64,000 nt of DNA from a virus (lineage: Duplodnaviria; Heunggongvirae; Uroviricota; Caudoviricetes), in IMG/VR virus record IMGVR_UViG_3300037502_002518, positions 5,712-69,711 of that record; one strand, written 5' to 3'. A model generated the notes under the pieces. It saw only the letters and a list, made by a program, of their open reading frames with translations. It made no database searches and had not been told where the DNA came from. Shown here in pieces: positions 5,686 through 51,517 of the stretch. Every line of letters begins with the position of its first letter. The first letter of the stretch is position 1. The position numbers and the translations under genes are program-made.

Positions 5686-5901
5686 ATGTTTAAAATGAAC
5701 AAAAATGAAAACAAAACAAACACGTTACTACTGGTAGTTATTGCAGGTGCAATCCTATTCTTTGGGATTTTTGCAATGAACAAGTTTAATGAAAGCGAAG
5801 AAGAAAAAGAACGAGAAGAACGATATGAACAGCTAGAAAAACAGAAAGAAGAGATTGATAAAGTTAACGAGTATTTAGACCTTAGAGAAGAGCTTGAATA
5901 G
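5686..5901 (+). CDS. small membrane protein (one TM helix followed by an E/K-rich tail)
   Basis: hydrophobic stretch LLLVVIAGAILFFGIFAM. Confidence 0.5.
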   Translation: MFKMNKNENKTNTLLLVVIAGAILFFGIFAMNKFNESEEEKEREERYEQLEKQKEEIDKVNEYLDLREELE

Positions 5902-7608: not shown

Positions 7609-8568
7609 ATGTTTAATCAAGAATTCAAAAAATCATTCTTAGACACATTCGAGAATGTAAAAACAAAAGAAACGTATTCAAGAATTTTTAAAAATTCAAT
7701 GACACTAGAGACAAAACTAAACAAAGACCTTTACAATTTTTCAAAAGCAGAAATAAATACTTTTCTAAAAGAATATCTAGTAGCTAAAACAAAACAGTCA
7801 ATCAGAACTTACGTCAGTGTTATTTCAAGATATGTATATTTTGCAAACGTTCAAGGGGTGACGGATAACACTGGAGAATATGTAAGCAAAAATCAAAAAT
7901 ACTTCTTTAAATATTTAAACAAAGAGACACAAATATATTTGTCAAAAAGTGAAATAGATTCTATCATCTTAAGCTTAGTAAATGCTCAAGATGCTTTTAT
8001 CATCAGTGCTTTATTCGATGGAATCGAGGGGACTAAAGTTGAAGAGTTAACAAGATTAAAAATTCAAGATATAGATGTTTTATCCAGAGTAGCAAAGGTA
8101 AAAAGTAAAAAAGGGGAAAGAGAAGTATCTATATCAAAAAGAACTGTTGATTTGGCTTTGATGGCAAATGGAGAGGTAGAGTATTATAAAAAGAATGGTG
8201 AATCAGAGCATGAAAGAGACACCATAGAGCTTGTTGAAAATTCACCATATATTTTAAAACCATCGAATTCCAGACCATCAAACGAGGGTTATGTTAGTCA
8301 CTATACAGTTTATAATAGACTTGAGATGATTAAAAGCCTAGAAGAATTTGAAGAGTTAAAAGATGCTTTAACAACAAAAAATATAATGAGAAGTGGTATG
8401 ATTTATGAAGCAAGTAAGATTGTTCAAGAAAATGGTACGTTAAGTCTGGACGATGTGAAAGACATTTGTAAGAAGTATAACGTTAGATACGTTTGGTCAG
8501 TGAATGACTTCTTAAACAAAGATGTGGTTGAATCAATATATGGAACATTGACAAAAGAAGCTGTTTAA
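7609..8568 (+). CDS. hypothetical 319-aa protein; N-terminal part weakly resembles the integrase SAM-like core-binding fold (speculative)
   Basis: long ORF with RBS AAAGGGATGGGGGA; no clear catalytic motifs. Confidence 0.5.
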   Translation: MFNQEFKKSFLDTFENVKTKETYSRIFKNSMTLETKLNKDLYNFSKAEINTFLKEYLVAKTKQSIRTYVSVISRYVYFANVQGVTDNTGEYVSKNQKYFFKYLNKETQIYLSKSEIDSIILSLVNAQDAFIISALFDGIEGTKVEELTRLKIQDIDVLSRVAKVKSKKGEREVSISKRTVDLALMANGEVEYYKKNGESEHERDTIELVENSPYILKPSNSRPSNEGYVSHYTVYNRLEMIKSLEEFEELKDALTTKNIMRSGMIYEASKIVQENGTLSLDDVKDICKKYNVRYVWSVNDFLNKDVVESIYGTLTKEAV

Positions 8569-19426: not shown

Positions 19427-19798
19427 ATGCTTCTTTTATATATGAGTTTGACTGGGAACGTGAGAGAGTTTGTTGAAAAAACAGGCTTGAAAAATAGAGA
19501 GATAGAGCCTACAAATCCATTCTTTGAAGTTAATGAGGACTTTGTAATTGTAGTTCCATCATATGAAGGATATATAAATGAAGAAGTTGAAGACTTTTTA
19601 TCATATAAAGACAATTCAAAGTTTTTGAGAGGTTTTGCATCAAGTGGAAATTTGAATTTTGATGAACTATTTTGTGTGAATGCAAAGCAGTTGTCAAAGA
19701 AGCTCAATAAACCTCTTTTTTTTAAGTTTGAATATAGTGGTACAGACAGAGATGTTAATTTGTTTTTAGAAAGGTTGGGAGAAATTGAAAAAGGTTGA
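19427..19798 (+). CDS. nrdI: NrdI flavodoxin-like protein
   Basis: N-terminal [13 protein letters not shown] (flavin-binding loop), size, position. Confidence 0.75.
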
Positions 19799-20525
19799 GC
19801 TAAAAAAGGGGAAAGAAAGTGAGAATTATTTTCACTTAAATAATTTGTTAAATATTCCAAAAGATGGAAAGATACAACTAAATAAAGACAAAGAGGCTGT
19901 AAAAGAATATTTCCTTGAGTACGTGAATCCAAATACAATGTTCTTTCATTCATTAGAAGAAAAGTTGGGATATTTGATTGAAAATGATTATATCGAAGAA
20001 GATATGATTAACAACTATAGCAAGGAATTCATTAAAGACTTATTTAAAAAGGCATATGACAAGAAGTTTAGGTTTAAAAGTTTTATGGGAGCATATAAGT
20101 TTTATTCCCAATATGCTATGAAGACAAATGATGGAAAGTGGTTCTTAGAACGATATGAAGACCGTGTTGTCTTTAACGCTTTAAAGCTTGCAATGGGAGA
20201 CGAAAGTTTAGCAGATTCGCTGGTTGAAGAAATGATAAACCAACGTTATCAACCTGCAACTCCAACATTTTTAAATGCAGGGAAAAAGAGACGTGGAGAA
20301 TTTATTTCATGTTTCCTGCTTACAATTGATGACTCTATGAATTCAATTGGACGTGCAATTAATTCTGCTTTGCAACTATCGAAGCGAGGTGGAGGGGTAG
20401 GAATCGGATTATCTAACATTCGTGCCAACAATGACCCAATCAAAGGTGTTGAAGGTTTATCGGACGGTGTTGTTCCTGTCATGAAGTTGTTAGAGGATTC
20501 GTTCTCATATGCCAATCAACTGGGT
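19785..20525 (+). CDS. nrdE: class Ib ribonucleotide reductase alpha subunit NrdE, exon 1
   Basis: [24 protein letters not shown] motifs; ends ...SYANQLG. Confidence 0.8.
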
Positions 20526-20848
20526 TGACATACAGGCTCAGTATAAAACGGGTTAACTGCTGGAACTTCTTTAGAGCTTAATGCGCCACAACGCAACTGG
20601 AAACGGTAATCGTAAAGGCTTAAAAAGTATTAAGATTAGAAAATCAGCATCCACTCCTCTAAGTGTTAAAACATAAGAGGAAGGTTCAACGACTAAGTGA
20701 CAGCAAAAGTGATTTTGTTGTCCGAATCCGTTAAATGTTTAATAAATAACACTCTTTATTAAATATGAAATATATAGTCTGTTCTTTAGGGAGACCTAAA
20801 GAGTGTAGCAGAAATGACTGCACCCCACGTTAGTGGAGTAACAAAAAG
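20526..20848 (+). mobile_element. group I intron 1 in nrdE (323 nt, no ORF)
   Basis: R-like AACGACTAAG and S-like ATATAGTCTG P7 elements; 5' exon ends U, intron ends G; splicing restores ANQLG|QRSGSGVTYL. Confidence 0.7.
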
Positions 20849-21265
20849 CAAAGGTCTGGTTCTGGAGTAACGTACTTGAATATCTTCCACCCAGATGTGA
20901 TTGACTTTCTTGCAGTAAGAAAAGAGAATGCAGATGAAAAGGTTAGAATTAAAACTTTATCTCTTGGTTTAGTTGTCCCAGACAAATATTATGAGCTTGT
21001 AAAAAACAATGAGAATATGTATCTTTTCTCTCCTTATGATGTTGAAAAAGAATATGGAAAACCTTTCTCATATATTGATATTACAAAAGAATATGACAAC
21101 ATGGTTAATAATAAAAATATTCGTAAATCTAAGATTAAAGCGAGAGAATTAGAAACTGAAATTAGTAATCTTCAAAATGAAAGTGGTTATCCTTATATTA
21201 TTAATATTGACCATGCAAACAAAGCCAACCCAGTTCATGGAAAAATTATCCAGAGTAACTTGTGT
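20849..21265 (+). CDS. nrdE: NrdE exon 2
   Basis: ...YLNIFHPDVIDFL ... SNLC. Confidence 0.75.
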
Positions 21266-21542
21266 AAACAAATGCACCTTTAAGTAGGAATGCTTATCGA
21301 AAATCCTGTTAAACGGGGAAACCCTCACTTGAGACAATCCCGTGCTAAATTTATTTGATACATTATGTTTTTTTAAATAATAAATGCCGAACGACTATCC
21401 CACTATGGGAGTACACTACAAGCCTTTGGTGGTGGAAAAGCAGGACATCCAGAACGGATGATGATATAGTCTGCTCTATATGGTGACATATAGCTGTGGT
21501 TAGCCCACGCTCTAATTTTAGCGAGATTAGAGGAACAAAAGG
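21266..21542 (+). mobile_element. group I intron 2 in nrdE (277 nt, no ORF)
   Basis: AACGACTATC and ATATAGTCTG elements; junction restores SNLC|VEIFQV... with the expected 23-residue spacing to DISCNLGS. Confidence 0.7.
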
Positions 21543-22571
21543 GTAGAAATTTTTCAAGTGCAAACGGAGTCAAAAATCAATGATGACCAAACTTATGAAG
21601 TTTTAGGTAGTGATATTTCTTGTAACCTTGGGTCAACCAATATCACAAATTTAATGGAGTCACCAAACTTTGGAAAATCAGTAGAGGTTATGACAAGAGC
21701 ATTAACAAATGTATCTGATATGTCAAGCATTGATTCAGTCCCATCAATAAAAAATGGTAATGATAGATACCACTCTATTGGTCTAGGAATGATGAACCTT
21801 GCTGGGTTCTTAGCAAAAAATCAAATTCATTATGGTAGTGATGAATCACTAGAGTTTGTTGACAAATACTCTATGCTTTTAAATTATTGGACTCTTGTTG
21901 CAAGTAATAAGATTGCAATTGAAAGAGATGAGAAGTTCTATGAATTTGACAAATCAAAGTATGCTAGTGGGGAATATTTTGATGAATACTTTAAGATTTT
22001 AGAACTTGATTTTAAACATGACAAGGTTAAAGGTTTGTTTGGAGGTGTCTATATTCCAACAATGAAAGATTGGAACGTGTTAAAGGATGCTGTTATGACT
22101 TATGGCTTATACTCAGCGTTTAGGCTTGCCACACCTCCGACAGGAAGTATCAGCTACATCAATGAAGCTACAGCTTCAATTCATCCAGTCATTTCAAGAA
22201 TTGAAGAAAGAGTTGAAGGTAAACGTGGTAAAGTTTATTATCCTGCTCCTTATCTTTCAGAAGAAACAATTCCATATTACAAGTCAGCATATGATATTGA
22301 CCAAAGAAAAATTATCGATGTGTATGCTACAGCACAAAATCATATTGACCAAGGTTTGAGTATGACATTATATACAAAATCAAATTTTAATGAAGGTCTT
22401 TATGAATGGAAAGTAGGAACAGCTTATCCTACAGAGAAAACGACAAGAGATTTAAACATTTTCAGAAACTACGCTTGGTCTAAAGGGATTAAGTCAATTT
22501 ACTACATTAGAACGTTTACCGAAGATGGCGATACAATTGGTGCAAACGAATGTGAAAGCTGTAGTGTATAA
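21543..22571 (+). CDS. nrdE: NrdE exon 3 (includes C-terminal CESC)
   Basis: DISCNLGS, C-terminal redox cysteines. Confidence 0.75.
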   Translation, partial: VEIFQVQTESKINDDQTYEVLGSDISCNLGSTNITNLMESPNFGKSVEVMTRALTNVSDMSSIDSVPSIKNGNDRYHSIGLGMMNLAGFLAKNQIHYGSDESLEFVDKYSMLLNYWTLVASNKIAIERDEKFYEFDKSKYASGEYFDEYFKILELDFKHDKVKGLFGGVYIPTMKDWNVLKDAVMTYGLYSAFRLATPPTGSISYINEATASIHPVISRIEERVEGKRGKVYYPAPYLSEETIPYYKSAYDIDQRKIIDVYATAQNHIDQGLSMTLYTKSNFNEGLYEWKVGTAYPTEKTTRDLNIFRNYAWSKGIKSIYYIRTFTEDGDTIGANECESCSV

Positions 22572-23577: not shown

Positions 23578-24228
23578 TTGGCATTAGTTATTAAAAAGGA
23601 CGGTTCAACAAATTACTGGGATAGTGAAAAAATTGTAGAAGCAATTATGAAATCAAGTGATAGAGTAAGCAAGAAAAAGCAACTGACAAAAGAGCAGATA
23701 AAATCCATTGTTGATGGAGTTGAAAAAAATGTATCATCATTTGATACGATTTATACATCAGATATTCACGACATGGTACTGTCTCAATTGCAAATTTTTA
23801 ACAAAAGTGTTTATAGAGAATATAAGATTTATCGTGACTATAAGAAAAAATTTAGCGATTCTTTTATAAATGTCACAGAGTATTCAAACAAGATTGTGTA
23901 CAGTGGGGACAAAGAGAATGCAAACAAAGATTCTACTTTAAATTCAACAAAACAAGCGTTAATTTCAGAGGGCATTATGCGTGAATTCATGAGAAACTTT
24001 GAGCTTAGAAAAGAGTGGGTAAAAGCTCATGATGATGGGTGGATTCACATTCATGATATGGCAAACAGATACCTTGGAGGTATTAATTGTTGCATTTTTG
24101 ATATGGACAATCTACTAAAAGATGGTTTTGAGATGAATGGTTCAAAATACTTTGAACCAAAATCAGCACAAACCGCTTGGGCTGTGATTGGAGATGTGAC
24201 ATTAAGTGCATCTGCGCAACAGTACGGT
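23578..24228 (+). CDS. nrdD: anaerobic (class III) ribonucleotide reductase NrdD, exon 1 (ATP-cone)
   Basis: N-terminal ATP-cone-like sequence; TTG start after RBS AAGGAGAG. Confidence 0.7.
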
Positions 24229-25095
24229 AAATAATTGCCGTAATAAAACCTGCTAACCAGCAAATGCTGGGTGTCTATTAAAAATAGGCTAACGGTGAAA
24301 CCTTAACAGATAATGCTGATGGCAATACCGTGCTTGACTCCATAAATAAATGAAAAGGGGGTGAAAATATGGAAGAAGTTTGGAAGAGTATAGACGATTT
24401 TGAAAATTATATGGTGAGTAACTATGGTAGAGTAAAATCCATCGATAGAATTATAAAAGAAAATGGTAAAAAAGGTTATTTTAAAAAAGGTGTTGTTTTA
24501 AAGGGTCAACCAAATAAAAACAATGGAAGAATATATGTTAACCTATACAACACTAGGGAAAAGAAAATTAAAAATGCGATTGTTGCCAGACTAGTTGCGA
24601 AAGCTTTTATAGACAATCCTAAAAATCTCAGAGAAGTTAATCATATAGATAGAGATGTAACAAATAACCATGTAGACAATTTAGAATGGGTAAGCCCTAA
24701 AGAAAACATGAAACACCTTGAAAATAAATATGGTTTTGATTTTGGCAGAATACCTGTTATTGGAAAACATAAAGAGACTGGGGAAGAAGTTTATTTTTCT
24801 TCAATAAAAAATGCCACTGATTGGCTTAGTGAAAAACAGGGAAAAATTGCTTATGCATCTGGAATAAGCAACTGTTGTAAAAGCACAAGAAAATCTTATA
24901 GAGGATATAAGTGGGAGTCAAGTTTAGAGACTATCGAAAGCATAGATTGACAACAAAAAGCTAGTTGACAATTGAAGAAGCGAGTAGAGTAGGATATGTG
25001 GTGAAATTCCCAATCCGAAACGGCAGGCAACGACTAGCAATCGTTGAAGATATAGTGCAAATAAGTAACCAGTAGGGAAACCTACATCTTATTTG
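24229..25095 (+). mobile_element. group I intron 1 in nrdD (867 nt) carrying an HNH homing endonuclease ORF
   Basis: AACGACTAGC element, structured flanks, internal HNH ORF. Confidence 0.7.
24369..24950 (+). CDS. intron-encoded HNH homing endonuclease (NUMOD4-like N-terminus YMVSNYGRVKS; HNH core EVNHIDRDVTNNHVDNLEWVSPKEN)
   Basis: HNH motif read directly from the sequence; RBS AAAGGGGGTG. Confidence 0.85.
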   Translation: MEEVWKSIDDFENYMVSNYGRVKSIDRIIKENGKKGYFKKGVVLKGQPNKNNGRIYVNLYNTREKKIKNAIVARLVAKAFIDNPKNLREVNHIDRDVTNNHVDNLEWVSPKENMKHLENKYGFDFGRIPVIGKHKETGEEVYFSSIKNATDWLSEKQGKIAYASGISNCCKSTRKSYRGYKWESSLETIESID

Positions 25096-25296
25096 GGTTT
25101 CAGTATTCCAAACATTGAATCAATCGTAGCTCGATATGCCGAAAAATCATATACAACACACTATGAATACTTTATTGACAAAGGTATTGATGATAACAAA
25201 GCTCAAGAGCTTGCTGAAGAAATGACTATTAGAGAGATTGAACAAGGGTATCAAGGGTTTGAAACCAAGTTGAACACTGTCTCAAATTCGCTGGGT
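25096..25296 (+). CDS. nrdD: NrdD exon 2
   Basis: in-frame segment between two introns. Confidence 0.6.
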
Positions 25297-25597
25297 TAGT
25301 TATATGGCTCACCTTACTGTAAACGGTAAGGATAATAGGTGGTGAACCTGCAAAAGCAGGGTGTGTATTAAATTAATATGCTAACGGTAGAACCTAAATC
25401 TTTTGACAAGGCAATACCGTGCCAAGTTTAAAGAGAAATCTTTTTAAAGGTGTAACGACTAAGATGTACGTCCTAAGTGTATACACATATGGATATGAAA
25501 TCTGTACAGACAGAGTGAAATTCTTTGTTTGGAAGCGCCACCCACCTAAAGCTTAAAGCTATGGTGAAGATATAGTCTACACTTATAGAAATATAAG
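25297..25597 (+). mobile_element. group I intron 2 in nrdD (301 nt, no ORF); 5' part closely resembles intron 1
   Basis: AACGACTAAG and GAAGATATAGTCTAC elements; shares AACCTGC-AAAGCAG...CTAACGGT...GGCAATACCGTGC block with intron 1. Confidence 0.7.
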
Positions 25598-26863
25598 GTT
25601 ATTGTGCAAATCCCTTTCGTCTCCATTTCATTTGGTTTAGACACGTCAAAATGGGGCAGAATCATTTCTAAGAAAATGTTGGAAATACGTGAACGTGGTA
25701 TAGGAAGAGACAGGATTTCAGCGGTGTTCCCGAAGCAAATTATGTTTATTCGTAGTGAAATCAACAAAAATGAAGACAGTCCAAATCATGACATTTATTT
25801 AAAAGCAATTGAATGTAGCAGAAAACGTTTGTATCCAGATTATTTAAGCTTAGACTCACCAGAGACGAATAATCTTGCAGAGATTTATGAACGCTCTGGA
25901 CAGGCAGTGATAGCAATGGGATGTAGAGCGTATTTAAGCCCTTATGAATATGAGGGTAAAGAGATTTACAACGGTCGTTTTAACATTGGAGCAGTCAGTT
26001 TAAACTTACCTAAAATGGCAATTGAAGCGAATGGCAACAAAAGTAAGTTTTTAAAATTGATTGATAAATATTCTGAAATGGTTTTTGAAATTCATGAAGA
26101 TTATTACCAAAGACTTTCACAGGTAAAGGCTTCAAGTAACCCACTTCTATTTATGGAAGGTGGCTCATTTAAAAAGCTAAAGGCAGATGAAACAATTGAA
26201 GAGTTACTAAAAGGAGCAACAGCATCATTAGGATACGTTGGTGTTGAAGAAGCAATGGTTGCATTAACTGGGGAAGGAATTACAAAGAATAAAGATTTCT
26301 CCATTGAGACAGTGCAAAGGCTAAAAGATAATGTCAATAAAGCATCAAACAAATACAATAGACTTGGGGCTTTGTACAGTACCCCCGCAGAAAATATTAT
26401 CTACCGTTTTAATAATATTAATCGTGAACAATATGGAGAAATTGACGGTGTAACAACGAGAGAATACATGACAAATTCTTTTCATGTCCCTGTTTTTGAA
26501 GATGTTTCAGTATTAGAGAAGATTGATTTTGAGTCGAACTTTCACTCTATCGCAACAGGTGGAAGAATTTCATATTGTGAGTTCCCTTACAATGTAGATT
26601 CAAAGATTTTAAAACAAGCCATTGATTTTGCAATGGAAAAAGGTTTATACTATGGTGTCAATGTTATTTCAGCAACATGTAATGATTGTTCTCACTCTGG
26701 TGATTTTGAGGATTGCCCAGAATGTGGTTCAGACAATGTGACATCAGTTTCTCGTGTATGTGGATATTTAAGTTTTGGAAAAATTAAAGGGGATTCACGA
26801 TATAACCTTGGTAAGCAAGCAGAGGTAAGAGAAAGAGTAAAACACACATTTGGAGGTTGCTAA
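25598..26863 (+). CDS. nrdD: NrdD exon 3 (glycyl-radical domain, RVCGYL motif, C-terminal Zn site CNDCSHSG...CPECG)
   Basis: glycyl radical motif SRVCGYLS. Confidence 0.75.
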   Translation, partial: VIVQIPFVSISFGLDTSKWGRIISKKMLEIRERGIGRDRISAVFPKQIMFIRSEINKNEDSPNHDIYLKAIECSRKRLYPDYLSLDSPETNNLAEIYERSGQAVIAMGCRAYLSPYEYEGKEIYNGRFNIGAVSLNLPKMAIEANGNKSKFLKLIDKYSEMVFEIHEDYYQRLSQVKASSNPLLFMEGGSFKKLKADETIEELLKGATASLGYVGVEEAMVALTGEGITKNKDFSIETVQRLKDNVNKASNKYNRLGALYSTPAENIIYRFNNINREQYGEIDGVTTREYMTNSFHVPVFEDVSVLEKIDFESNFHSIATGGRISYCEFPYNVDSKILKQAIDFAMEKGLYYGVNVISATCNDCSHSGDFEDCPECGSDNVTSVSRVCGYLSFGKIKGDSRYNLGKQAEVRERVKHTFGGC

Positions 26864-27829: not shown

Positions 27830-27858
27830 TTGACATATAGGCAAACTAGTGGTACAAT
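27830..27858 (+). promoter_or_regulatory. promoter TTGACA-17bp-TACAAT
   Basis: hexamers seen in sequence. Confidence 0.55.
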
Positions 27859-27884: not shown

Positions 27885-28136
27885 GTGGTAATATTAATGA
27901 CTGAACCAACAAAGTTGTATGTAAAAGACATTATTGATTTTTTGGATTATCGATGGACTATTATGGACGAACCGTTTGTGGTCGTTGGAGATGAGTATAT
28001 TCCTTCACTAAAAGAACATTATGAGAACAAAATTACAGAAATTGCAGAAGAAGAAGGGTATAATTATAAGATTGTGATTACTCCACATAATGATGAGAAA
28101 AAAGGCATGTCAGTATTTACACTAAAGGAATTATAA
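27885..28136 (+). CDS. hypothetical protein (83 aa)
   Basis: RBS AAAGGTGG. Confidence 0.5.
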   Translation: MVILMTEPTKLYVKDIIDFLDYRWTIMDEPFVVVGDEYIPSLKEHYENKITEIAEEEGYNYKIVITPHNDEKKGMSVFTLKEL

Positions 28137-28137
28137 T

Positions 28138-28323
28138 ATGGATTTAATCAAGCCTGTACAATCAATTTCTAGCAATCTATTAGATGTAAAAAATCCAATA
28201 GAATTGTTAAATGGACATGAAACCAAAGAGCCAGATGATATAGTAAAGATTGAATATGATGTTAATAAATATATGATACACAAGATTGTTGATGGGGTAA
28301 TAGAGCTAAAGAAAATCAAATGA
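28138..28323 (+). CDS. hypothetical protein (61 aa)
   Basis: tightly packed ORF. Confidence 0.4.
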   Translation: MDLIKPVQSISSNLLDVKNPIELLNGHETKEPDDIVKIEYDVNKYMIHKIVDGVIELKKIK

Positions 28324-28332
28324 GGTGAGAGC

Positions 28333-28524
28333 ATGAATATTCCAGAAAACGTGAAGAAGTATGCAAGCTATAACATGCATCTTGAATCAGATATGCTTTT
28401 AGAAATTATTAAAAAAAGAAGATTGAATATGGCATATCGAATGACTGACGAAGAAAAGTGGATTGTACAAAACAAAGAGTCTTTTGTAAAATATTTCAAT
28501 AGTGAAAAAGGAGATTCTCAATGA
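28333..28524 (+). CDS. hypothetical protein (63 aa)
   Basis: RBS GAGGTGAGAGCATG. Confidence 0.45.
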   Translation: MNIPENVKKYASYNMHLESDMLLEIIKKRRLNMAYRMTDEEKWIVQNKESFVKYFNSEKGDSQ

Positions 28525-30764
28525 GAAAACTAGTTGTCTTACGTGGCGCTCCTGCCTCTGGAAAAAGCACATTCGTTAAAAACCACAACTTGGAAGACTA
28601 TACAATTAGTACGGACGACATTAGATTACTCTATGGTAGTCCAATAATTGGAGAAGATGGAAATACGTCAATATCTCAAAAAAACAACAAGCAAGTTTTT
28701 GAGTTGATGTTTGATGTTTTAGAACATAGAATGTTGAATGGTGAATTTATTGTTGTTGATGCCACTCACTGCAATAAAAAAGACTTTAACAAGTACAAGT
28801 CATTGGCTAAGTTGCATCGTTACAGAGTTTATGTGGTGGATTTTAACAGAACCTTAGAAGAGTTAAAAGAAAATAACGAAAAGAGAAAATTTACATCTAA
28901 GTTTGTTCCCGAGCATGTAATCGAAAAAATGCACTTTAAACAACAATCTTGGGAGATTCCAAGCTGGGCAAATGTAATAAAGGAAGAAGATTTCCACGAG
29001 TCCATCATTGGAAGTAAGAGATTCAACTATAACAATTGGGAGGAAATTCACCATATTGGGGATATACATGGTTGTTATGATACACTTATGAATTTTGTTG
29101 GTGAATTTTTAAATCCAGAACACCTCTATATCTTTACTGGGGATTTATTTGACAGAGGAGAACAAAATAAGGAAGTTTTAAACTTTATGTTGAACAACTA
29201 TTACAAGGACAATGTTGTTTTTATCGAAGGAAATCATGATACTCCAATGAACTACTATGCTAACAACAGACCAGATTTAATTAAGAATAGAGTGTTCAAA
29301 GAGAGTACAATCCCTCAAATTGAAGAAGGGCTGTCCGACAAAGAGATTGTTGAAATGAAAAGGAAAATTAGACATGCAATGAGACACTTTAAAGATTATG
29401 TTCATTACACTTTTGGAGATGACGATGGAGATAACGTAAAAGTTTTTGTCTCACATGGAGGACTTTCTAACAACCCAATGGTATCAATGTCCATGATTCC
29501 CTCTGTTCAATTCATTAGAGGTGTTGGAGATTACAGTTTAGATATTGACAAGAATTGGTCAGAAAGTAATTCAAACATTTTGCAGATACATGGTCATCGA
29601 AATACTTTTGAACACCCTATTGTGGCAGGAAAGAAATCTGTCAATTTAGAGGGTGGTGTCGAATCTGGTGGAGATTTGCGAGTATACACACTATATAAGA
29701 ACGAGCATGGTCTTGTTTTTCAATATTGTGAAGAATACGATAGCCAAGTAGAATCAAAAAACGAGGTAAAAACAGATGAAGAAAATCTAGTTGATAAAAT
29801 GAGAAACAACAATTTTATTCAAGAAAAACAACTGGGTGACAACATCAGCTCTTTTAATTTTACTAGAAAGGCATTTAAAAAAGGTGTTTGGAATGACTTG
29901 ACAGTAAAGGCAAGAGGATTATTTATAAACACCCACTGTAATGAGATTGTGGCAAGGGGTTACGACAAGTTTTTCAATATAAATGAGGTTGAGTCTACAA
30001 AAGAGGAAAACCTAAAAAGAGGTTTAAAATTTCCTGTTCGTGTATATGAAAAACCAAATGGATACCTTGGTCTTCTTGGATATAATAGTGAAAAAGATGA
30101 GCTTGTATTTGCATCAAAATCACAAACGAATAGTCCTCATGCAAAATGGTTTAAAGAATTATTTTACAAAAAAACAACAGAAATGTCACGATATTATATT
30201 AAGAATTATTTAAAAGAGCATAATTCATCTTTAACGTTTGAAGTAATTTCATTTAATGACCCACACATCATAGAGTATTCAGAAGAGGATATAATCTTAC
30301 TCGATATTATTAAACGTGATATTGATTTTAGCAAAGAGCCTTATGGAAAAGCGGATGGAGATTATAGTTTGTCTGAATCTGTAACAACTCTTGCAGGTAT
30401 TATGGGTTGGAATTGTAAAAAATTACTTGCTATCTTTGGTAGTTATGAACAGTATCATAGTTGGTACAAAAGAGAAATGACCCAAACAACTAAGAAAATT
30501 GAGGGATATGTCATTGAAGACAGCAAAGGGTTTATGTTTAAAATTAAGATGCCATACTATAATTTTTGGAAGCAGATTAGGACAGCAAAAGATATGTATG
30601 CAAAAGGAAATTTGAATATAGATTCACTATATGAAAGAACTCATAATAGACTTGCTACAAAATGGATTATCAATGAATTTGAGAACATAAACAAAGAAGA
30701 ACTGAAGTCAATGTCAATTATTGATTTTAGAAACTATTTTAAAGAGAAAGAAGGAACATTTTAA
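28521..30764 (+). CDS. tri-domain polynucleotide kinase-phosphatase with C-terminal RNA/DNA ligase-like nucleotidyltransferase domain (Pnkp-like RNA repair enzyme)
   Basis: N-terminal P-loop GAPASGKST; calcineurin-type phosphoesterase GDIHGCYDTL, GDLFDRG, GNHD; nucleotidyltransferase motif I KPNGYLGL in C-terminal third. Confidence 0.6.
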   Translation: MRKLVVLRGAPASGKSTFVKNHNLEDYTISTDDIRLLYGSPIIGEDGNTSISQKNNKQVFELMFDVLEHRMLNGEFIVVDATHCNKKDFNKYKSLAKLHRYRVYVVDFNRTLEELKENNEKRKFTSKFVPEHVIEKMHFKQQSWEIPSWANVIKEEDFHESIIGSKRFNYNNWEEIHHIGDIHGCYDTLMNFVGEFLNPEHLYIFTGDLFDRGEQNKEVLNFMLNNYYKDNVVFIEGNHDTPMNYYANNRPDLIKNRVFKESTIPQIEEGLSDKEIVEMKRKIRHAMRHFKDYVHYTFGDDDGDNVKVFVSHGGLSNNPMVSMSMIPSVQFIRGVGDYSLDIDKNWSESNSNILQIHGHRNTFEHPIVAGKKSVNLEGGVESGGDLRVYTLYKNEHGLVFQYCEEYDSQVESKNEVKTDEENLVDKMRNNNFIQEKQLGDNISSFNFTRKAFKKGVWNDLTVKARGLFINTHCNEIVARGYDKFFNINEVESTKEENLKRGLKFPVRVYEKPNGYLGLLGYNSEKDELVFASKSQTNSPHAKWFKELFYKKTTEMSRYYIKNYLKEHNSSLTFEVISFNDPHIIEYSEEDIILLDIIKRDIDFSKEPYGKADGDYSLSESVTTLAGIMGWNCKKLLAIFGSYEQYHSWYKREMTQTTKKIEGYVIEDSKGFMFKIKMPYYNFWKQIRTAKDMYAKGNLNIDSLYERTHNRLATKWIINEFENINKEELKSMSIIDFRNYFKEKEGTF

Positions 30765-31462
30765 TGAATACAGATTTTATTAAAGGGTTAACGAAGCTAA
30801 GTTTTAGCGAAAATGACAATATATTATTTGAGGCAGATGCAAAAGATGTATCATTTGATGCAAATTTAACAAAAGGTTTTAGTATAGATGAATTCCTTGA
30901 GAGACTAACTCTAGTGGATAACCCTTCTAAAATTTCATCTGGTGATGATAGCATTGAAAAAAATGAGGACTACCCTTTTGTTGAAGAGATTTTCACTTAT
31001 GCTTTAAACAATAACATGCTATATTCTGAAGCATATAAAGAGAAATTTCTAAATAAAACACCAAAAAATAAAAAGAAGAACAAACTAAAGGTTTATCTGT
31101 CTGGAGACATGTTCTCTGGATGGCAAGACGATATGCCAGAGCATAAACATATCGAATATATCGACCCACGTAAAGCGCCTCAATCAAGTATGGATGATTT
31201 TGTTAACTGGGATTTAAACAAAGTCAAAGAAGCAGACATTGTATTTTGTCACATGGCATACAACAATCCAAGTGGATTAGGAGCATCTTGGGAATGTTCA
31301 ATCGCTAGTGAGTACGACATTCCAATTATTACTTCTTGGGAAAAGAATTATGTAGACCCATTTTTCGCTTCAAAATCATTATATTTATATCTTGATTTTC
31401 ATGCATCAACTCAAAGACTGATTGAGCTTGTAGAGAAAGAAGTGAAAGAAAAATGTTTCTAG
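30764..31462 (+). CDS. nucleoside 2-deoxyribosyltransferase-fold protein (Rcl/NDT-like), translationally coupled to Pnkp-like gene
   Basis: KVYLSGDMFSGW and NPSGLGASWECSIA resemble the NDT Rossmann-like core; TAATG overlap with upstream stop. Confidence 0.4.
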   Translation: MNTDFIKGLTKLSFSENDNILFEADAKDVSFDANLTKGFSIDEFLERLTLVDNPSKISSGDDSIEKNEDYPFVEEIFTYALNNNMLYSEAYKEKFLNKTPKNKKKNKLKVYLSGDMFSGWQDDMPEHKHIEYIDPRKAPQSSMDDFVNWDLNKVKEADIVFCHMAYNNPSGLGASWECSIASEYDIPIITSWEKNYVDPFFASKSLYLYLDFHASTQRLIELVEKEVKEKCF

Positions 31463-31591
31463 GACTCACATTTGTAGCTTTTATAGTATTTGTAGTTGCC
31501 ATCTTTTGGTTAGCACTAATTCAACTAGAGGTTCATGACAAAGCTAGCCAAAAGTTTGATAAGTTCAACAAAGAAAAATTAGAGGAAAAGG

Positions 31592-32422
31592 ATGATGAAA
31601 ATGTACGATAAGCGGATTAAGTGGGCAATTGGATTAGGTGTAGTATTATTAATTGGAGTAGTATTATTCTTTATGTCATTGACAACAGTTAAACAAGGTC
31701 ATGTTGGAGTTGTTTATTCTGCAAATGGTGGTGTTCAAGGAGAAGTTAAAACACAAGGTGTCCATTTTGTGAAGCCTTGGGAGAAAGTTACTGAATACCC
31801 TGTTGCATTAGAGACAGTCACTTTCGAGAATGTTCCTCTAGCAACACGAGATGGTAAGCCATTATCAATGGAATTGAATTTTAACTACAGCAACGACCCA
31901 CAAGAAGTCGTTAATATCTTTAATAAGTTTAAAGGTGCAACATCAACAGATATTGAACAGTCATTTTTATTATCACGAGCCAAAGATTCTGCACTTGAAG
32001 TGACATCTAAGTATACGATTTTAGAAATCTTCCAAAATCGTGGGGAGATTCAGACAGCAATCTCACAACATTTTACAGATGAGATTGCAAAATATGGTTT
32101 TGTGGTCAGTGATTTTGTAATTGGAACACCTACACCAGACCCACAAACTCAAGAAGCTATCCAACGTGTTGTTGATGCACAGCAAAAGCTTGAAGCCTTA
32201 CGTGTAGAAACACAACAAGCAGAAGAAGAAGCTAAACGCAAGTTGGTTGAGGCTGAGGGTCAAGCGGAGGCAGAGATTGCTCAAGCAAAAGGGACAGCAG
32301 AGTCAAACAAATTAATTCAAGAGTCAATTACACCAGAATTGCTTAAGAAGATGGAGATGGAAGCCAGACAAAAATTTGGATGGGTTGAAGTACAAGGTGC
32401 AGATGCAATTGTTGTAGAGTAA
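31592..32422 (+). CDS. SPFH/band-7 (prohibitin/stomatin-like) membrane protein
   Basis: N-terminal TM, SPFH core, C-terminal coiled-coil EA-rich region. Confidence 0.7.
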   Translation: MMKMYDKRIKWAIGLGVVLLIGVVLFFMSLTTVKQGHVGVVYSANGGVQGEVKTQGVHFVKPWEKVTEYPVALETVTFENVPLATRDGKPLSMELNFNYSNDPQEVVNIFNKFKGATSTDIEQSFLLSRAKDSALEVTSKYTILEIFQNRGEIQTAISQHFTDEIAKYGFVVSDFVIGTPTPDPQTQEAIQRVVDAQQKLEALRVETQQAEEEAKRKLVEAEGQAEAEIAQAKGTAESNKLIQESITPELLKKMEMEARQKFGWVEVQGADAIVVE

Positions 32423-32435
32423 AGGAGATGTTTTT

Positions 32436-33152
32436 ATGGACAAAATAATGGGATATGATAGAGCGCTTGTTGATGGTCTAGTTGCGGAAGAGAACTTTAC
32501 AGAGCTTGCTTATGCGTGGGGACACAAACAACCCGAAGAATTTGAAAAGATTCTACAAGAGTGGTTTGATAACAATATTCCTTTTAGATTGAAGTCAAAT
32601 TCAGAAAACTTCTTTAAAGAAGGGTTGTACTTTATGATAGATGCTCAAAAGGGTAAGACAGATGTTTTCCTATCTGAAGATAAAGATTTTGAAATTGAAG
32701 GGCGAGTATTAAGAAGATTTTTTGACAACAAGACGAATTTGTCTGACTCAATTAAAAATCAATTTGATAAAGAATATAGGGTTGTAACAATTCCCAGTGA
32801 AGTTGGAATGTACATCAATACATGCAAAGAGAATGAGTTAAGGTTAATTGAATCATTATATTATATTGGGAGACGAGCAGAGAGTAATTATTTAGACTTT
32901 GCTGACACTTGGATTATAAATAACCAAAGAGAGTACATTGTTGCCTTCATGATGAACAATTGGAACACTGATGTCCAATATGAATTAAGTGTCACAGAAG
33001 TTGTAGATGAAATTGTTGACAATGGAACACCATTAGGAATGTTTTATATTTCATTTGATGAAATATTGCACACTTTAGATAAAAAACTTTTATCTATGGC
33101 TATCGAAGAGACACGAGAAGAGAATGAAATAAAGTTTTATAAAAAGTTTTAA
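32436..33152 (+). CDS. hypothetical protein (238 aa)
   Basis: RBS AAAGGAGATG. Confidence 0.5.
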   Translation: MDKIMGYDRALVDGLVAEENFTELAYAWGHKQPEEFEKILQEWFDNNIPFRLKSNSENFFKEGLYFMIDAQKGKTDVFLSEDKDFEIEGRVLRRFFDNKTNLSDSIKNQFDKEYRVVTIPSEVGMYINTCKENELRLIESLYYIGRRAESNYLDFADTWIINNQREYIVAFMMNNWNTDVQYELSVTEVVDEIVDNGTPLGMFYISFDEILHTLDKKLLSMAIEETREENEIKFYKKF

Positions 33153-33159
33153 CTGAAAA

Positions 33160-33192
33160 ATACAGTCCAGATTGTGGGCTGTATTTTTTTTA
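33160..33192 (+). terminator. rho-independent terminator (ATACAGtCC...GGGCTGTAT plus T9)
   Basis: seen in sequence. Confidence 0.7.
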
Positions 33193-42858: not shown

Positions 42859-44196
42859 ATGGATTTTATTTCGTTGGTAGAAAATGGAGAAAAAGGAGAG
42901 GTTATTTTGAATTTAAACAAAAATGAACTAGAAGCTATTATGATTTTAGATGAGATTAAAAGCACATCATCAAGAAATGACAAAGAGACAATCTTAAAAG
43001 AGCATCAACATCATCAAGAATTTAGACAGATGATTGAATTCTTGCTAGACGATTCAATCACAACAGGTATCAAAACAAAGAAGTTGTCAAAATTTATTGA
43101 CAAGTCAGAAAAAGAAAATGGCATGGGAGGTATTCTTGAAGTTATAGACTACCTAAGAGTTAATAATACAGGTAGTGATAATGACGTTATAGTCGTTACA
43201 AGCTTCCTTCAAGATTTAGAAGATGACTATGACAACCTACAAGAGACCTTATCTCAATTGTTTTGCAAACAGCTTAAAATTGGAGTCACTGTTAAAACTT
43301 TAAATAAAGTATATGGCAAAGGCACTGTCAAAAAGATTGAAGTCATGCTTGCTAAAAAATATGAGGAAGACAAACATAACCTTGACAGCTTTACTTTGAC
43401 AACAAAGCTTGATGGAATCCGATGCATTGCTTTAAAGTTGGACAGTGGTGATGTAAAATTCTTTACACGTCAAGGAAAGCCAATTTTAGGTCTAACAGAA
43501 TTGGAAACGAGTTATGAAATTATGCCAAATGGTTACGCTTATGATGGTGAACTATTACTGAATGAAGACCTACCAAGCGATGAACTCTTCAGAAAGACAC
43601 AAAAGGTTGTCCGTAAAGATGGAGAGAAAAAGAATGTTAAGCACATTCTTTTTGATATGATTCCATTGGTAGAATTTGAAGCTGGTGAATCCACACTAGA
43701 TTATGAAAGTCGAAGAACAATTTTAGAAGCAATGTTTACAGAAGAAAACATTGAAGTAACACCAGTTCTGTATTCTGGCAGTGACAAATCAATGATTGAT
43801 TTTTACCTTAGAGAAGCAGTCCTTGACCAGAAAGAAGGTATTATGATTAACAAAAATGATGGTCTTTACAAAACAAAACGTACAGACGACTTGCTAAAGG
43901 TTAAAGTGTTCCATACGGTTGATTTAGAAATAACTGGATATGGAGAAGGTGAGGGGAAATACAGGGACATGCTAGGTTATCTTGTTGTTGACTACAAAGG
44001 AAACCCTTTACGTGTTGGCTCTGGACTGTCTGATGAAGAGCGTATAATTCTCTTCCGATATGCAGATGAATTAGTTGGAAGAATTGTTGAAGTGTCCTAC
44101 TTTGAGGAATCACAGAATGAAGATGGCAAGTTATCATTGAGATTTCCTGTATTTAAAGGGTTTAGAGATGACAAAGATGAGCCAAGTCATAACTAA
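42859..44196 (+). CDS. ATP-dependent DNA ligase
   Basis: adenylation motif I KLDGIRC (KxDG), size 445 aa, OB-fold C-terminus. Confidence 0.7.
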   Translation: MDFISLVENGEKGEVILNLNKNELEAIMILDEIKSTSSRNDKETILKEHQHHQEFRQMIEFLLDDSITTGIKTKKLSKFIDKSEKENGMGGILEVIDYLRVNNTGSDNDVIVVTSFLQDLEDDYDNLQETLSQLFCKQLKIGVTVKTLNKVYGKGTVKKIEVMLAKKYEEDKHNLDSFTLTTKLDGIRCIALKLDSGDVKFFTRQGKPILGLTELETSYEIMPNGYAYDGELLLNEDLPSDELFRKTQKVVRKDGEKKNVKHILFDMIPLVEFEAGESTLDYESRRTILEAMFTEENIEVTPVLYSGSDKSMIDFYLREAVLDQKEGIMINKNDGLYKTKRTDDLLKVKVFHTVDLEITGYGEGEGKYRDMLGYLVVDYKGNPLRVGSGLSDEERIILFRYADELVGRIVEVSYFEESQNEDGKLSLRFPVFKGFRDDKDEPSHN

Positions 44197-48757: not shown

Positions 48758-49324
48758 TTGTTTAATTATATGTTAAAAGGTTATTTGGCAAGTCCACTGT
48801 TTACAATTGGAGAACGTTATTTGAATGAAGAGATTGCAAAAATTTTACGAGGAAGTATTAAAGATTTAGAGTTACATGTTCCACAAGAGAATGAAAACAT
48901 TAACGACAAGACACAACATGCTTCATCAATGGAGGTTGCTGAAGCGGATTTAAAACCATTGTCTGATTCTAATTTTGTTATTGCAGTTCTCGATGGAAGT
49001 GAAATCGACTCTGGTGTAAGTGCAGAGATTGGTGTGGCACATGCACTTGGAATCCCAGTAATTGCTTTATTTTCTGACATTCGTCAAGAGGGCAATAAAA
49101 ACAAAGATAAAATTCAAGCATTAGTTTATGACTCAACAGAATCAAGCTTTGCATACAGAAACTTGTTTACCATTGGTCTGATAAAACTTGGCAATGGCAT
49201 CATTGTAAAAACTCTAGAAGAGCTTGAATATGCTGTACGACTTATGTTTGAAGCAAATGAATATGCAGATGATATTAAAGAGTATATTGAAACAAAGAGA
49301 GTGATTCTAAATGAAGAAAAATGA
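48758..49324 (+). CDS. nucleoside 2-deoxyribosyltransferase
   Basis: GYLASPLFT...LDGSEIDSGVSAEIGVAHALGIPVIAL matches the NDT family core. Confidence 0.6.
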   Translation: MFNYMLKGYLASPLFTIGERYLNEEIAKILRGSIKDLELHVPQENENINDKTQHASSMEVAEADLKPLSDSNFVIAVLDGSEIDSGVSAEIGVAHALGIPVIALFSDIRQEGNKNKDKIQALVYDSTESSFAYRNLFTIGLIKLGNGIIVKTLEELEYAVRLMFEANEYADDIKEYIETKRVILNEEK

Positions 49325-50002: not shown

Positions 50003-51517
50003 ATCTCCCGAAAGAAGTCGCCCTCTTCAAGCGTGTAAAAGGCGCATTCAGACGGTAAGGGGGGAGATGAATTTAGGTCAAGCGGTAGATTAAAACTATC
50101 TTTCAATACTTTTTGTGTCAGTTCATAAATTGTACCAGAAAAGCTATTGATATAATTTTTTATTTGACACTTATCAATCACTTCTACTAAGATATTTGGG
50201 AATTCGATTAACTTGGGAACTATTTCCACTGATGTTCTCATCTAATTAGTATATACTAAGAATATGACAAAGGAGGTGACATATAAAATGTTAAAAGCCT
50301 ACAAATATCGACTATATCCAACCGAAAGTCAGAAAGAGTATTTTTCCAATTGTTTTGGTTGCGCTCGATTCATTTACAACAAAATGCTCAGCGACAAAAT
50401 CGACCACTATAAAGAAAACAAGAAAATGCTTTATACCACGCCTGCTAAGTACAAGAAAGAGTTCCCGTTTTTGAAAGAGGTGGACAGTCTAGCATTGGCA
50501 AATGCTAGACAAAATCTGGAAAGAGCTTATAAAAACTTTTTCCGAGACACGTCCGTCGGTTTTCCAAAGTTCAAATCCAAGCACAAGTCGAAATCGAGCT
50601 ACACCACTAACAATCAAGGTGGAAACATTCGTATAGAATACGGAAAAATCAAACTTCCGAAAATCGGATTCGTAAAACTGAAGCAACATAGAATGTTTGA
50701 TGGGGTTATCAAATCTTGTACGATTTCTATGAATAAGTCAGAAAAGTATTTCATTTCTATTCTAGTAAAATCAGAAGAGAAAGAAATGGAAATCACCGAA
50801 AGAAAAATTGGGATTGATTTAGGTATTTCTGATTTTGCGATTACCACGAACGATTTAGGAGAATCCGTTAAATATGATAACCCAAAGTATTTATATAAAT
50901 CAGAAAAGAAACTAAAAAAATACCAACGTTCTTTGTCTCGCAAACAAAAAGGCGGAAAAAACCGCAATAAAGCTCGTATTTAAGTCGCCAAAAAACACGA
51001 AAAGATTGCCAATCAAAGGAAGGACTTCTTGCACAAACTAACTAAACAGATTACGGACGAAAACCAAGTCATCGTAATCGAAACGCTGTCCAGTAAGAAC
51101 CTGATGAAGAACCACAAACTGGCAAAAAGCATTGGTGATGTCAGTTGGTTTGAATTCGTCCGTCAACTTGAATATAAAGCGGAACAAAAAGGTCGTACAA
51201 TTATCAAAGCGGACAGATTCTATCCATCCAGTCAGATTTGTTCCGCCTGTGGACATCGAGATGGAAAAAAAGGCATTGCATATACGAGAATGGGATTGTC
51301 CTAGTTGTGGTGAACACCTTGACCGAGACATCAATGCCAGTAAGAACCTCTTGGCATTAGCCAAGTAAAAGAAAACATATGAGGCAGGGACTGCCTTTTG
51401 AGCCTACCCCATATCCGATTCCTCTGTCTACATGACATTCGTGCAGACAAGAATGGAGTTAGTAGGAAGCCCCACTTTAAAATTTTAAGAATTTAAGTAG
51501 TGGGCAGTTCACTCATG
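50003..51517 (+). mobile_element. IS200/IS605-family (IS1341-like, tnpB-only) element or IStron-like intron inserted in tdk (boundaries approximate)
   Basis: 1.5-kb insert between tdk halves: 260-nt 5' non-coding, TnpB ORF, 150-nt 3' hairpin-rich non-coding; no TnpA. Confidence 0.6.
50264..51368 (+). pseudogene. tnpB: tnpB (OrfB, RuvC-like RNA-guided nuclease family) disrupted by an in-frame TAA (50981-50983) and a frameshift at an A7 run (51265-51271)
   Basis: N-terminal YKYRLYPT; RuvC-I GIDLGI, RuvC-II VIVIETL, zinc finger CSACGH...CPSCG, Ruv[13 protein letters not shown]. Confidence 0.75.

Follow-up and report, generated by a model that had tools for sequence, protein, structure and literature searches.

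Does a single phage gene encode a complete pathway for mending broken RNA, and to which of the known repair systems is such a gene related? The question is raised by an open reading frame (ORF) in a 64,000-nucleotide stretch of a virus of the class Caudoviricetes (IMG/VR record IMGVR_UViG_3300037502_002518, positions 5,712 to 69,711), referred to here in its full length as the window. The heal-and-seal systems studied in depth are bacteriophage T4 Pnkp with Rnl1, bacterial Pnkp/Hen1, and fungal or plant Trl1. The ORF (28521..30764, stop codon included; plus strand, as are all modules and residues located below) has an ATG start, 747 codons, and a TAA stop. The original prediction had placed a kinase, a metallophosphoesterase, and a ligase on this one polypeptide in the domain order of bacterial Pnkp, and this was borne out: the ORF has exactly the extent claimed, every quoted motif was found in the translation (GAPASGKST at residues 9 to 17, GDIHGCYDTL at 180 to 189, GDLFDRG at 207 to 213, GNHD at 237 to 240, and KPNGYLGL at 511 to 518), and three nonoverlapping Pfam domains, all far above chance, follow one another in that order (AAA_33 at residues 4 to 139, E = 2.6e-19; Metallophos at 176 to 363, E = 1.5e-18; RNA_lig_T4_1 at 463 to 680, E = 6.7e-36). 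Residues 1 to 743 also matched positions 1 to 732 of the 737-position profile PHROG 8238, annotated as "RNA ligase" (E = 2.5e-207). The 747-amino-acid (aa) protein is predicted to combine a P-loop polynucleotide kinase with a binuclear metallophosphoesterase and an ATP-dependent RNA ligase. The catalytic residues of each module are intact, and an AlphaFold2 model built from 48 homologues had a mean predicted local distance difference test (pLDDT) score of 89.7. It is a chimera, in which a healing half of the bacterial Pnkp type is joined to a sealing half of the fungal Trl1 (Rnl6) type, and the gene very probably encodes an autonomous heal-and-seal RNA repair enzyme.

The adenylyltransferase module of the ligase (residues ~420 to 677; 29778..30551) consists of an Rnl1-like N-terminal subdomain, as found in both Rnl6 and Rnl1 enzymes, and a nucleotidyltransferase core; it is followed by a helical C-terminal domain of the Trl1 (Rnl6) type (residues 678 to 747; 30552..30761). 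Comparison of the family profile with all PDB sequences gave the Trl1 ligase of Candida glabrata (9qw7) at an E value of 3.2e-29 and that of Chaetomium (CthTrl1) at 1.2e-18, the latter over residues 82 to 397 of 407, with the C-terminal domain covered. T4 Rnl1 was matched at 2.1e-10, in alignments that stopped shortly past motif V (residues 249 to 255 of 374). The Rnl6 clade is defined by its C-terminal domain (PMC6379707). A profile of residues 689 to 747 alone scored 15.7 and 16.5 bits with two Trl1 C-terminal domains (none of 1,000 shuffles exceeded 9.0) and gave no reportable score with the C-terminal domain of T4 Rnl1 (residues 254 to 374), which confers tRNA specificity and to which the domain of the window ligase is unrelated. 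The Foldseek ranking agreed with the other fold comparison of the modules, and neither list of fold matches for the ligase module held an Rnl4 (Pnkp-type) ligase. The ligase is not of the Pnkp/Rnl4 type; it is of the Rnl1/Trl1 type, with a C-terminal domain and a putative 2'-phosphate-binding triad that match fungal Trl1.

All nucleotidyltransferase motifs that a functional ligase would need were found. Alignment with CthTrl1 (residue roles from PMC6379707) paired R465 with R99 and K483 with K120, both contacts of the ATP gamma-phosphate; F484 with F121, an adenine contact; K511 (30051-30053) with K148, the position of AMP attachment in motif I; K533 with K169 (motif Ia); E574 with E218 (motif III); E661 and G662 with E300 and G301 (motif IV); K674 and K676 with K323 and K325 (motif V); and R737 (30729-30731) with R389, a residue of the C-terminal domain with an essential structural role. 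The relationship is not purely with Trl1: motif IIIa, which stacks on the adenine, reads LLD, as in T4 Rnl1, versus LHG in Trl1 (Leu in place of His241), and motif IV reads EGYVIE versus EGFVIR (Glu in place of Arg305).

Counterparts of the Trl1 triad were also present in the window ligase. In Trl1, a sulfate bound by His227, Arg334, and Arg337 serves as a mimic of the terminal 2'-phosphate, alanine mutants adenylylate RNA 60- to 420-fold more slowly, and the triad has been termed the enforcer of 2'-phosphate end specificity by its authors (PMC11404444; PMC12440814). By profile alignment these positions correspond to H582 (30264-30266), K684 (30570-30572), and R687 (30579-30581), so that Lys stands for the first triad Arg. 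Conservation was counted in 152 distinct family members, drawn from bacterial genomes and viral contigs, with catalytic residue lists taken from PMC6379707 and PMC3675462. Position 582 was His in all 152; position 684 was Lys in 146 and Arg in 6; position 687 was Arg in 151 and Lys in 1. R737 was conserved in every member, as were the other catalytic residues of all three modules, apart from the H183 position of the phosphoesterase, where 39 members have Gln. The triad His lies 9 residues past the motif III Glu in the family consensus and 8 in the window protein; T4 Rnl1 has Ile at this position.

The healing half precedes the ligase. Its P-loop 5'-OH polynucleotide kinase module (residues ~1 to 165; 28521..29015) carries the invariant residues K15, D32, R35, and R122. 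In the central binuclear metallophosphoesterase module (residues ~170 to 406; 29028..29738), D181, H183, D208, R212, N238, H239, H312, and H359 correspond to D187, H189, D233, R237, N263, H264, H323, and H376 of Clostridium thermocellum Pnkp (CthPnkp), and in the fold comparison both modules were closest to the healing modules of that enzyme. The window phosphatase differs from that of CthPnkp in lacking the beta3-beta4 hairpin insert, the spacing between the two Asp residues being 27 residues in the window sequence versus 46 (PMC3675462). The NCBIfam profile of bacterial Pnkp, TIGR04075, matched residues 4 to 389 over profile positions 10 to 401 of 851, at 80 bits against a cutoff of 750; only its first half is covered, far below the cutoff, and the protein is therefore no Pnkp, although its healing half resembles one. 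What stands of the match to bacterial Pnkp originally proposed is the domain order and the Pnkp-like kinase and phosphatase; the score and the Trl1-type ligase go against it. The domain order and the homology of kinase and phosphatase with those of CthPnkp could also be read as marking a member of the bacterial Pnkp family, with its Pnkp/Hen1 system, that has lost Hen1. This reading is extremely unlikely and was rejected on the score and ligase-domain tests: the ligase aligns end to end with Trl1, is not an Rnl4 like that of CthPnkp, and finds no match in the second half of TIGR04075, at its C-terminal end.

Partner genes argue in the same direction. The CthPnkp system has a Hen1 partner, and the original prediction that none lies near the window gene was confirmed, with no methyltransferase match in the flanking ORFs or in 27 mid-sized ORFs of the window. 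When the ORFs around relatives of the gene were clustered, in 84 viral loci and 86 loci from genomes or phages, no conserved partner common across taxa emerged; neither Hen1 nor any other partner was conserved in 168 loci, where the recurrent methyltransferases were of the DNA type and no Hen1-specific profile was run. That none recurs across these 168 loci fits a self-contained enzyme, unlike Pnkp/Hen1.

Matches of the metallophosphoesterase motifs to PHROG 246 ("NinI-like phosphatase") and to PP1-type enzymes raise a different reading, that the protein acts mainly on DNA ends as a 5' kinase and 3' phosphatase, as in DNA repair, or removes phosphate from Ser/Thr residues of proteins like enzymes of the lambda/NinI type, and that the ligase domain is secondary. 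T4 Pnkp, too, acts on DNA. However, the best fold match of the phosphatase was the RNA-end phosphatase of CthPnkp and not lambda phosphatase, the module is permanently fused to a domain of the RNA ligase family whose residues are invariant, and the phage has a separate ATP-dependent DNA ligase (42859-44196). A DNA-end or protein phosphatase role is accordingly considered very unlikely.

An RNA repair path that would need no partner protein can be laid out from the three modules. First, the N-terminal kinase would phosphorylate the 5'-OH end of a broken RNA, as the kinase of CthPnkp moves phosphate from a nucleoside triphosphate onto a 5'-OH end (PMC3902929). Second, the central metallophosphoesterase would open the 2',3'-cyclic phosphate at the opposite end and may go on to remove it. 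Third, the C-terminal ligase would self-adenylylate at K511 with ATP, pass the AMP to the 5'-phosphate, and join the ends. We infer the three activities, and RNA as the substrate, from the established enzymology of homologous modules, which gives a coherent path; by this analogy the protein looks like a natural fusion of a healing unit with a yeast-type ligase.

What the second step leaves behind bears on the chemistry of the joint. The phosphoesterase of CthPnkp opens 2',3'-cyclic phosphates by cleaving the P-O3' bond; in the wild type the diester step outpaces phosphate release (78% of the substrate opened and 20% released as inorganic phosphate), so that a 2'-phosphate intermediate forms faster than phosphate is released, and the H189D mutant halts there, with nucleoside 2'-monophosphate (2'-NMP) as its sole product (PMC2190708). 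The 3'-OH/2'-phosphate ends left by H189D are sealed by yeast tRNA ligase, and the ends made by the wild type are sealed by T4 Rnl1 (PMC1920235; PMC3675462). The window enzyme could follow either course.

If it works as in yeast, the phosphoesterase stops at a 3'-OH/2'-phosphate end or passes it on, such ends are required or preferred by the Trl1-like ligase, and the joint keeps the 2'-phosphate, either until host Tpt1/KptA removes it or permanently, blocking recleavage. This is quite possible, though doubtful. Its main support is the conservation of the triad positions together with the Trl1-type C-terminal domain; the diester-first chemistry of CthPnkp-type enzymes and the sealing of the mutant's ends by the yeast ligase agree with it, as does T4 Rnl1, which does not ligate 2'-phosphate ends (PMC12440814) and lacks the triad His. 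Several observations weigh on the other side. The window protein retains H183 and R212, whose counterparts are needed for the monoesterase step of CthPnkp (PMC3675462), and therefore may make 2'-OH ends. Plant tRNA ligase needs a 2'-phosphate without having these arginines, and the preference of Trl1 is not absolute (PMC12440814), which makes the triad neither necessary nor fully sufficient. Motifs IIIa and IV are nearer those of T4 Rnl1 than those of Trl1. A search with yeast Tpt1 (a query sequence checked to be identical to 7yw4) found no Tpt1/KptA homologue, either within the window or across the 2.9 Mb of loci around 168 relatives.

This last result favors a course as in T4, by which the phosphate would be fully removed, as by wild-type CthPnkp, and a 3'-OH/2'-OH end would be joined to the 5'-phosphate, with the conserved His, Lys, and Arg merely gripping the RNA backbone. 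The window protein and most family members retain an intact monoesterase-competent site (H183 and R212), and T4 Rnl1 seals the ends made by wild-type CthPnkp; full phosphate removal comes close to being the probable course. It leaves the conserved Trl1 triad positions and the Trl1-type C-terminal domain unaccounted for, however, and T4 Rnl1 itself has no such His and a different C-terminal domain.

The natural variation at the H183 position bears on the phosphoesterase in its own right. Gln replaces the residue equivalent to CthPnkp His189 in the 39 members noted above, which include all 34 copies from "Candidatus Saccharibacteria." This was initially taken as support for a diesterase-only enzyme, a reading that was dropped. 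CthPnkp H189Q has poor activity (PMC2190708), which leaves the natural Gln variants unexplained.

Compared with fungal Trl1, the founder of Rnl6, the window ligase is alike end to end, including the Rnl6-defining C-terminal domain, and has counterparts of the Trl1 residues R99, K120, K148, K169, E218, E300, K323, K325, and R389 besides the triad. Fungal Trl1 likewise unites its three activities in a single chain. Its domain order is the opposite, however, with the ligase first in Trl1 and last in the window protein, and Trl1 heals with a GTP-dependent kinase and a 2H cyclic phosphodiesterase whereas the window protein has a Pnkp-type kinase and a metallophosphoesterase; the whole-protein layout of Trl1 is therefore absent. 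Trl1 is eukaryotic, and the family of the window protein is prokaryotic and viral. Bacteriophage T4 divides the work between two proteins, Pnkp and Rnl1, and the phosphatase of T4 Pnkp is a DxDxT acylphosphatase (PMC3592404), unlike the metallophosphoesterase of the single window protein. The kinase-phosphatase Pnkp1 of Capnocytophaga (4xrp) is a recognizable relative of the first two modules; in the Capnocytophaga Pnkp1-Rnl-Hen1 complex the ligase is a separate protein and Hen1 is required (PMC4411300), whereas the window protein has everything fused and no Hen1.

The fusion is not unusual: it belongs to a catalogued family, PHROG 8238, present in hundreds of phages and bacterial genomes, within which the window protein is divergent. 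Among 5.8 billion proteins searched, 3,536 matched at E values of 1e-5 or lower, and the best 120 of these all had the identical three Pfam domains; many of the 120 carry the NCBI name "RNA ligase" and come from Bacillus, Paenibacillus, Brevibacillus, Thermoactinomyces, and others. The PHROG 8238/NCBI "RNA ligase" proteins of phages and bacteria share the architecture at 36 to 59% full-length identity. Full-length relatives were found by tblastn in 108 deposited phage genomes, with identities of 41% in SPbeta-like phages of Bacillus (the best named relative being Bacillus phage SPbetaL2, at 41%), 39% in Alicyclobacillus phage KKP_3916, 36 to 39% in Staphylococcus phages (Sepunavirus, Twort-like, and siphoviruses), 34% in a Fusobacterium phage, and 26% in a Lactobacillus phage; the PHROG 8238 phages of these same groups constitute the window protein's own family. 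Pattern scans added relatives in 345 IMG/VR viral contigs and in the genomes of 311 bacterial species, including 34 "Candidatus Saccharibacteria," many Lachnospiraceae, and the Bacillus pumilus group. The bacterial copies, in genomes of Bacillales, Lachnospiraceae, and Saccharibacteria, do not differ in kind from the window protein, and some lie in ordinary chromosomal surroundings. In "Candidatus Saccharibacteria" (loci L026 to L086), the gene was present in dozens of genomes with a conserved chromosomal neighborhood, and because these genomes are very small, a cellular rather than phage role is suggested there. On the chromosome of Desmospora activa (L006, 14277-15000), a barnase-type secreted ribonuclease (PF00545) and a barstar inhibitor are encoded ~2 kb downstream of the repair gene, adjoining a SpoU methylase gene.

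What would a phage gain from such an enzyme? The most likely function is the mending of RNA cut by host ribonucleases, and a counter-defense role is what we can best infer, by analogy with T4, whose Pnkp and Rnl1 acting against PrrC are the established precedent (PMC2610378; PMC1920235). In one lineage of gut phages (IMG/VR contigs L110, L112, L128, L154, L156, and L168) the repair gene stands amid orphan Dam, D12, N6/N4, and C5 DNA methyltransferase genes, a typical antirestriction neighborhood that was counted in favor of counter-defense; genes for an HD-domain protein and a DUF6273 protein lie near it in the same contigs. Several points weigh against this role. The methyltransferase context is guilt by association and comes from one lineage only. 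The family is chromosomal in many bacteria, including the 34 "Candidatus Saccharibacteria" genomes, and therefore counter-defense is not its sole role and the family also serves cells. No tRNA genes were found in the window, and the searchable literature holds no experimental work on any family member.

The window protein joins the healing half of Pnkp/Hen1 to the sealing half of Trl1 without a partner, in a family spread over hundreds of phages and bacteria. Neither this combination nor a statement of a prokaryotic or viral protein with both the Rnl6 C-terminal domain and the triad was found in the searchable literature. If the function is as proposed, many phages of Gram-positive bacteria would carry a one-gene antidote to RNA-cutting defenses. 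A more tentative proposal is that the family is a prokaryotic "fungal-type" RNA ligase system in which the Trl1-like ligase, by way of its His-Lys-Arg triad, seals the 3'-OH/2'-phosphate ends supplied by the Pnkp-type cyclic phosphodiesterase fused to it, so that the joint retains a 2'-phosphate. Were this so, bacteria would have their first natural source of internal 2'-phosphate RNA, bacterial Tpt1/KptA would gain a substrate, and a prokaryotic or viral origin would be indicated for the ligase domain of eukaryotic Trl1; the 2'-phosphate could also shield the repaired site from recleavage, like the 2'-O-methyl mark of Hen1. The phage gene itself matters less than the light that the family may shed on 2'-phosphate RNA and Tpt1 in bacteria (PMC6573784) and on the ancestry of the eukaryotic tRNA ligase.

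The repair gene overlaps both of its neighbors. Upstream, the TGA stop of a 63-aa ORF without a family match (28333..28524, plus strand) overlaps its ATG (ATGA). Downstream, its TAA stop overlaps the next ATG (TAATG at 30762-30766), as originally predicted, and this is the start of a 232-aa orphan ORF (30764..31462, plus strand). This product had been called a nucleoside deoxyribosyltransferase (NDT)-fold protein, which holds for its C-terminal domain (residues ~105 to 225) by way of remote relatives: in a full HMMER scan, 248 proteins proved remotely related to the C-terminal half, and these pass the Pfam thresholds for PF15891/PF05014. The whole protein is an orphan, and a word-indexed search of the 5.8 billion proteins returned only itself. 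A 276-aa SPFH/Band_7 membrane protein (31592..32422, plus strand; Pfam Band_7, E = 7.2e-32; PHROG 200) and a 238-aa orphan without a family match (32436..33152, plus strand), the last gene of the putative transcription unit, follow. The latter had one relative, 90% identical, and its structure model was unusable (pLDDT of 39).

These genes had been suggested to form a functional cassette with the repair gene. No counterparts of the 232-aa and 238-aa proteins were found beside relatives of the repair gene, except for two weak matches to the former. Only SPFH recurs: homologues were encoded no more than ~1 kb from the repair gene in Staphylococcus phage 110, in viral contigs L152 and L134, and on Thermoactinomyces chromosomes (positions near the repair gene were L002 8675-9487, L152 12904-13803, L134 2479-3291, and L007 12323-13297), and 2 to 6 kb away in L119 and L157. 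The linkage recurs in unrelated phages but in a minority of loci and is weak, and the cassette was not upheld. A consensus scan placed a promoter-like sequence (TTGACA-17-TACAAT with an extended TG, 11/12 matches; 27830..27858, plus strand) ahead of these genes, where it may start a unit of 27885-33152, and a terminator-like hairpin with a 15-bp stem and a T run (33155..33189, plus strand) directly after the 238-aa ORF. The two sites bracket the genes in 27885-33152, which makes cotranscription plausible at the level of a consensus scan; counts of promoter-like sites in the region were no higher than in shuffled sequences, and the operon boundaries are therefore only suggestive. PADLOC returned nothing meaningful on the DNA.

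The window covers the part of a large phage genome that serves replication and nucleotide metabolism, with genes for a helicase, a primase, a RecJ-like nuclease, class I and class III ribonucleotide reductases, DNA ligase, dUTPase, thymidylate synthase, RNase H, a polymerase, an endolysin, and tail proteins. Megablast of 20 kb around the repair gene against the phage collection found no close phage genome. The nearest named phage by polymerase was Alicyclobacillus phage KKP_3916 (47.5%), which has the repair gene with other neighbors.

Two genes elsewhere in the window are interrupted. The gene for the large subunit of the class I ribonucleotide reductase is split (19785-20528 and 21558-22571, within 19785-22571), and Rfam group I introns between the pieces (20507-20801, 52.5 bits; 21256-21493, 84 bits) flank a 135-aa ORF (20876-21283). 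The reading frame of an NrdD-like anaerobic reductase is interrupted as well (23578-24234 and 25604-26863, within 23578-26863); no Rfam intron was found between its pieces, which are separated by a 193-aa ORF (24369-24950) with an HNH-like motif, NHIDRD...NLEWVSPKENMKH. The 1271-aa DNA polymerase (52124-55939) was matched by its family profile in two stretches and by the Alicyclobacillus phage polymerase in five pieces, and because the matches are broken up, one of the polymerases may contain an insertion (intein or intron). A transposase-like gene (50264-50983; PHROG 13964/506) lies just upstream of it. A second nucleoside 2-deoxyribosyltransferase, this one canonical (48758-49324; PF05014, E = 6.7e-19) is encoded 17 kb downstream of the repair region, adjoining genes for dihydrofolate reductase, thymidylate synthase, and thymidine kinase, and an integrase-family protein (7609-8568; PHROG 5830, E = 3.3e-75) is encoded in this otherwise large, lytic-type-looking phage genome.

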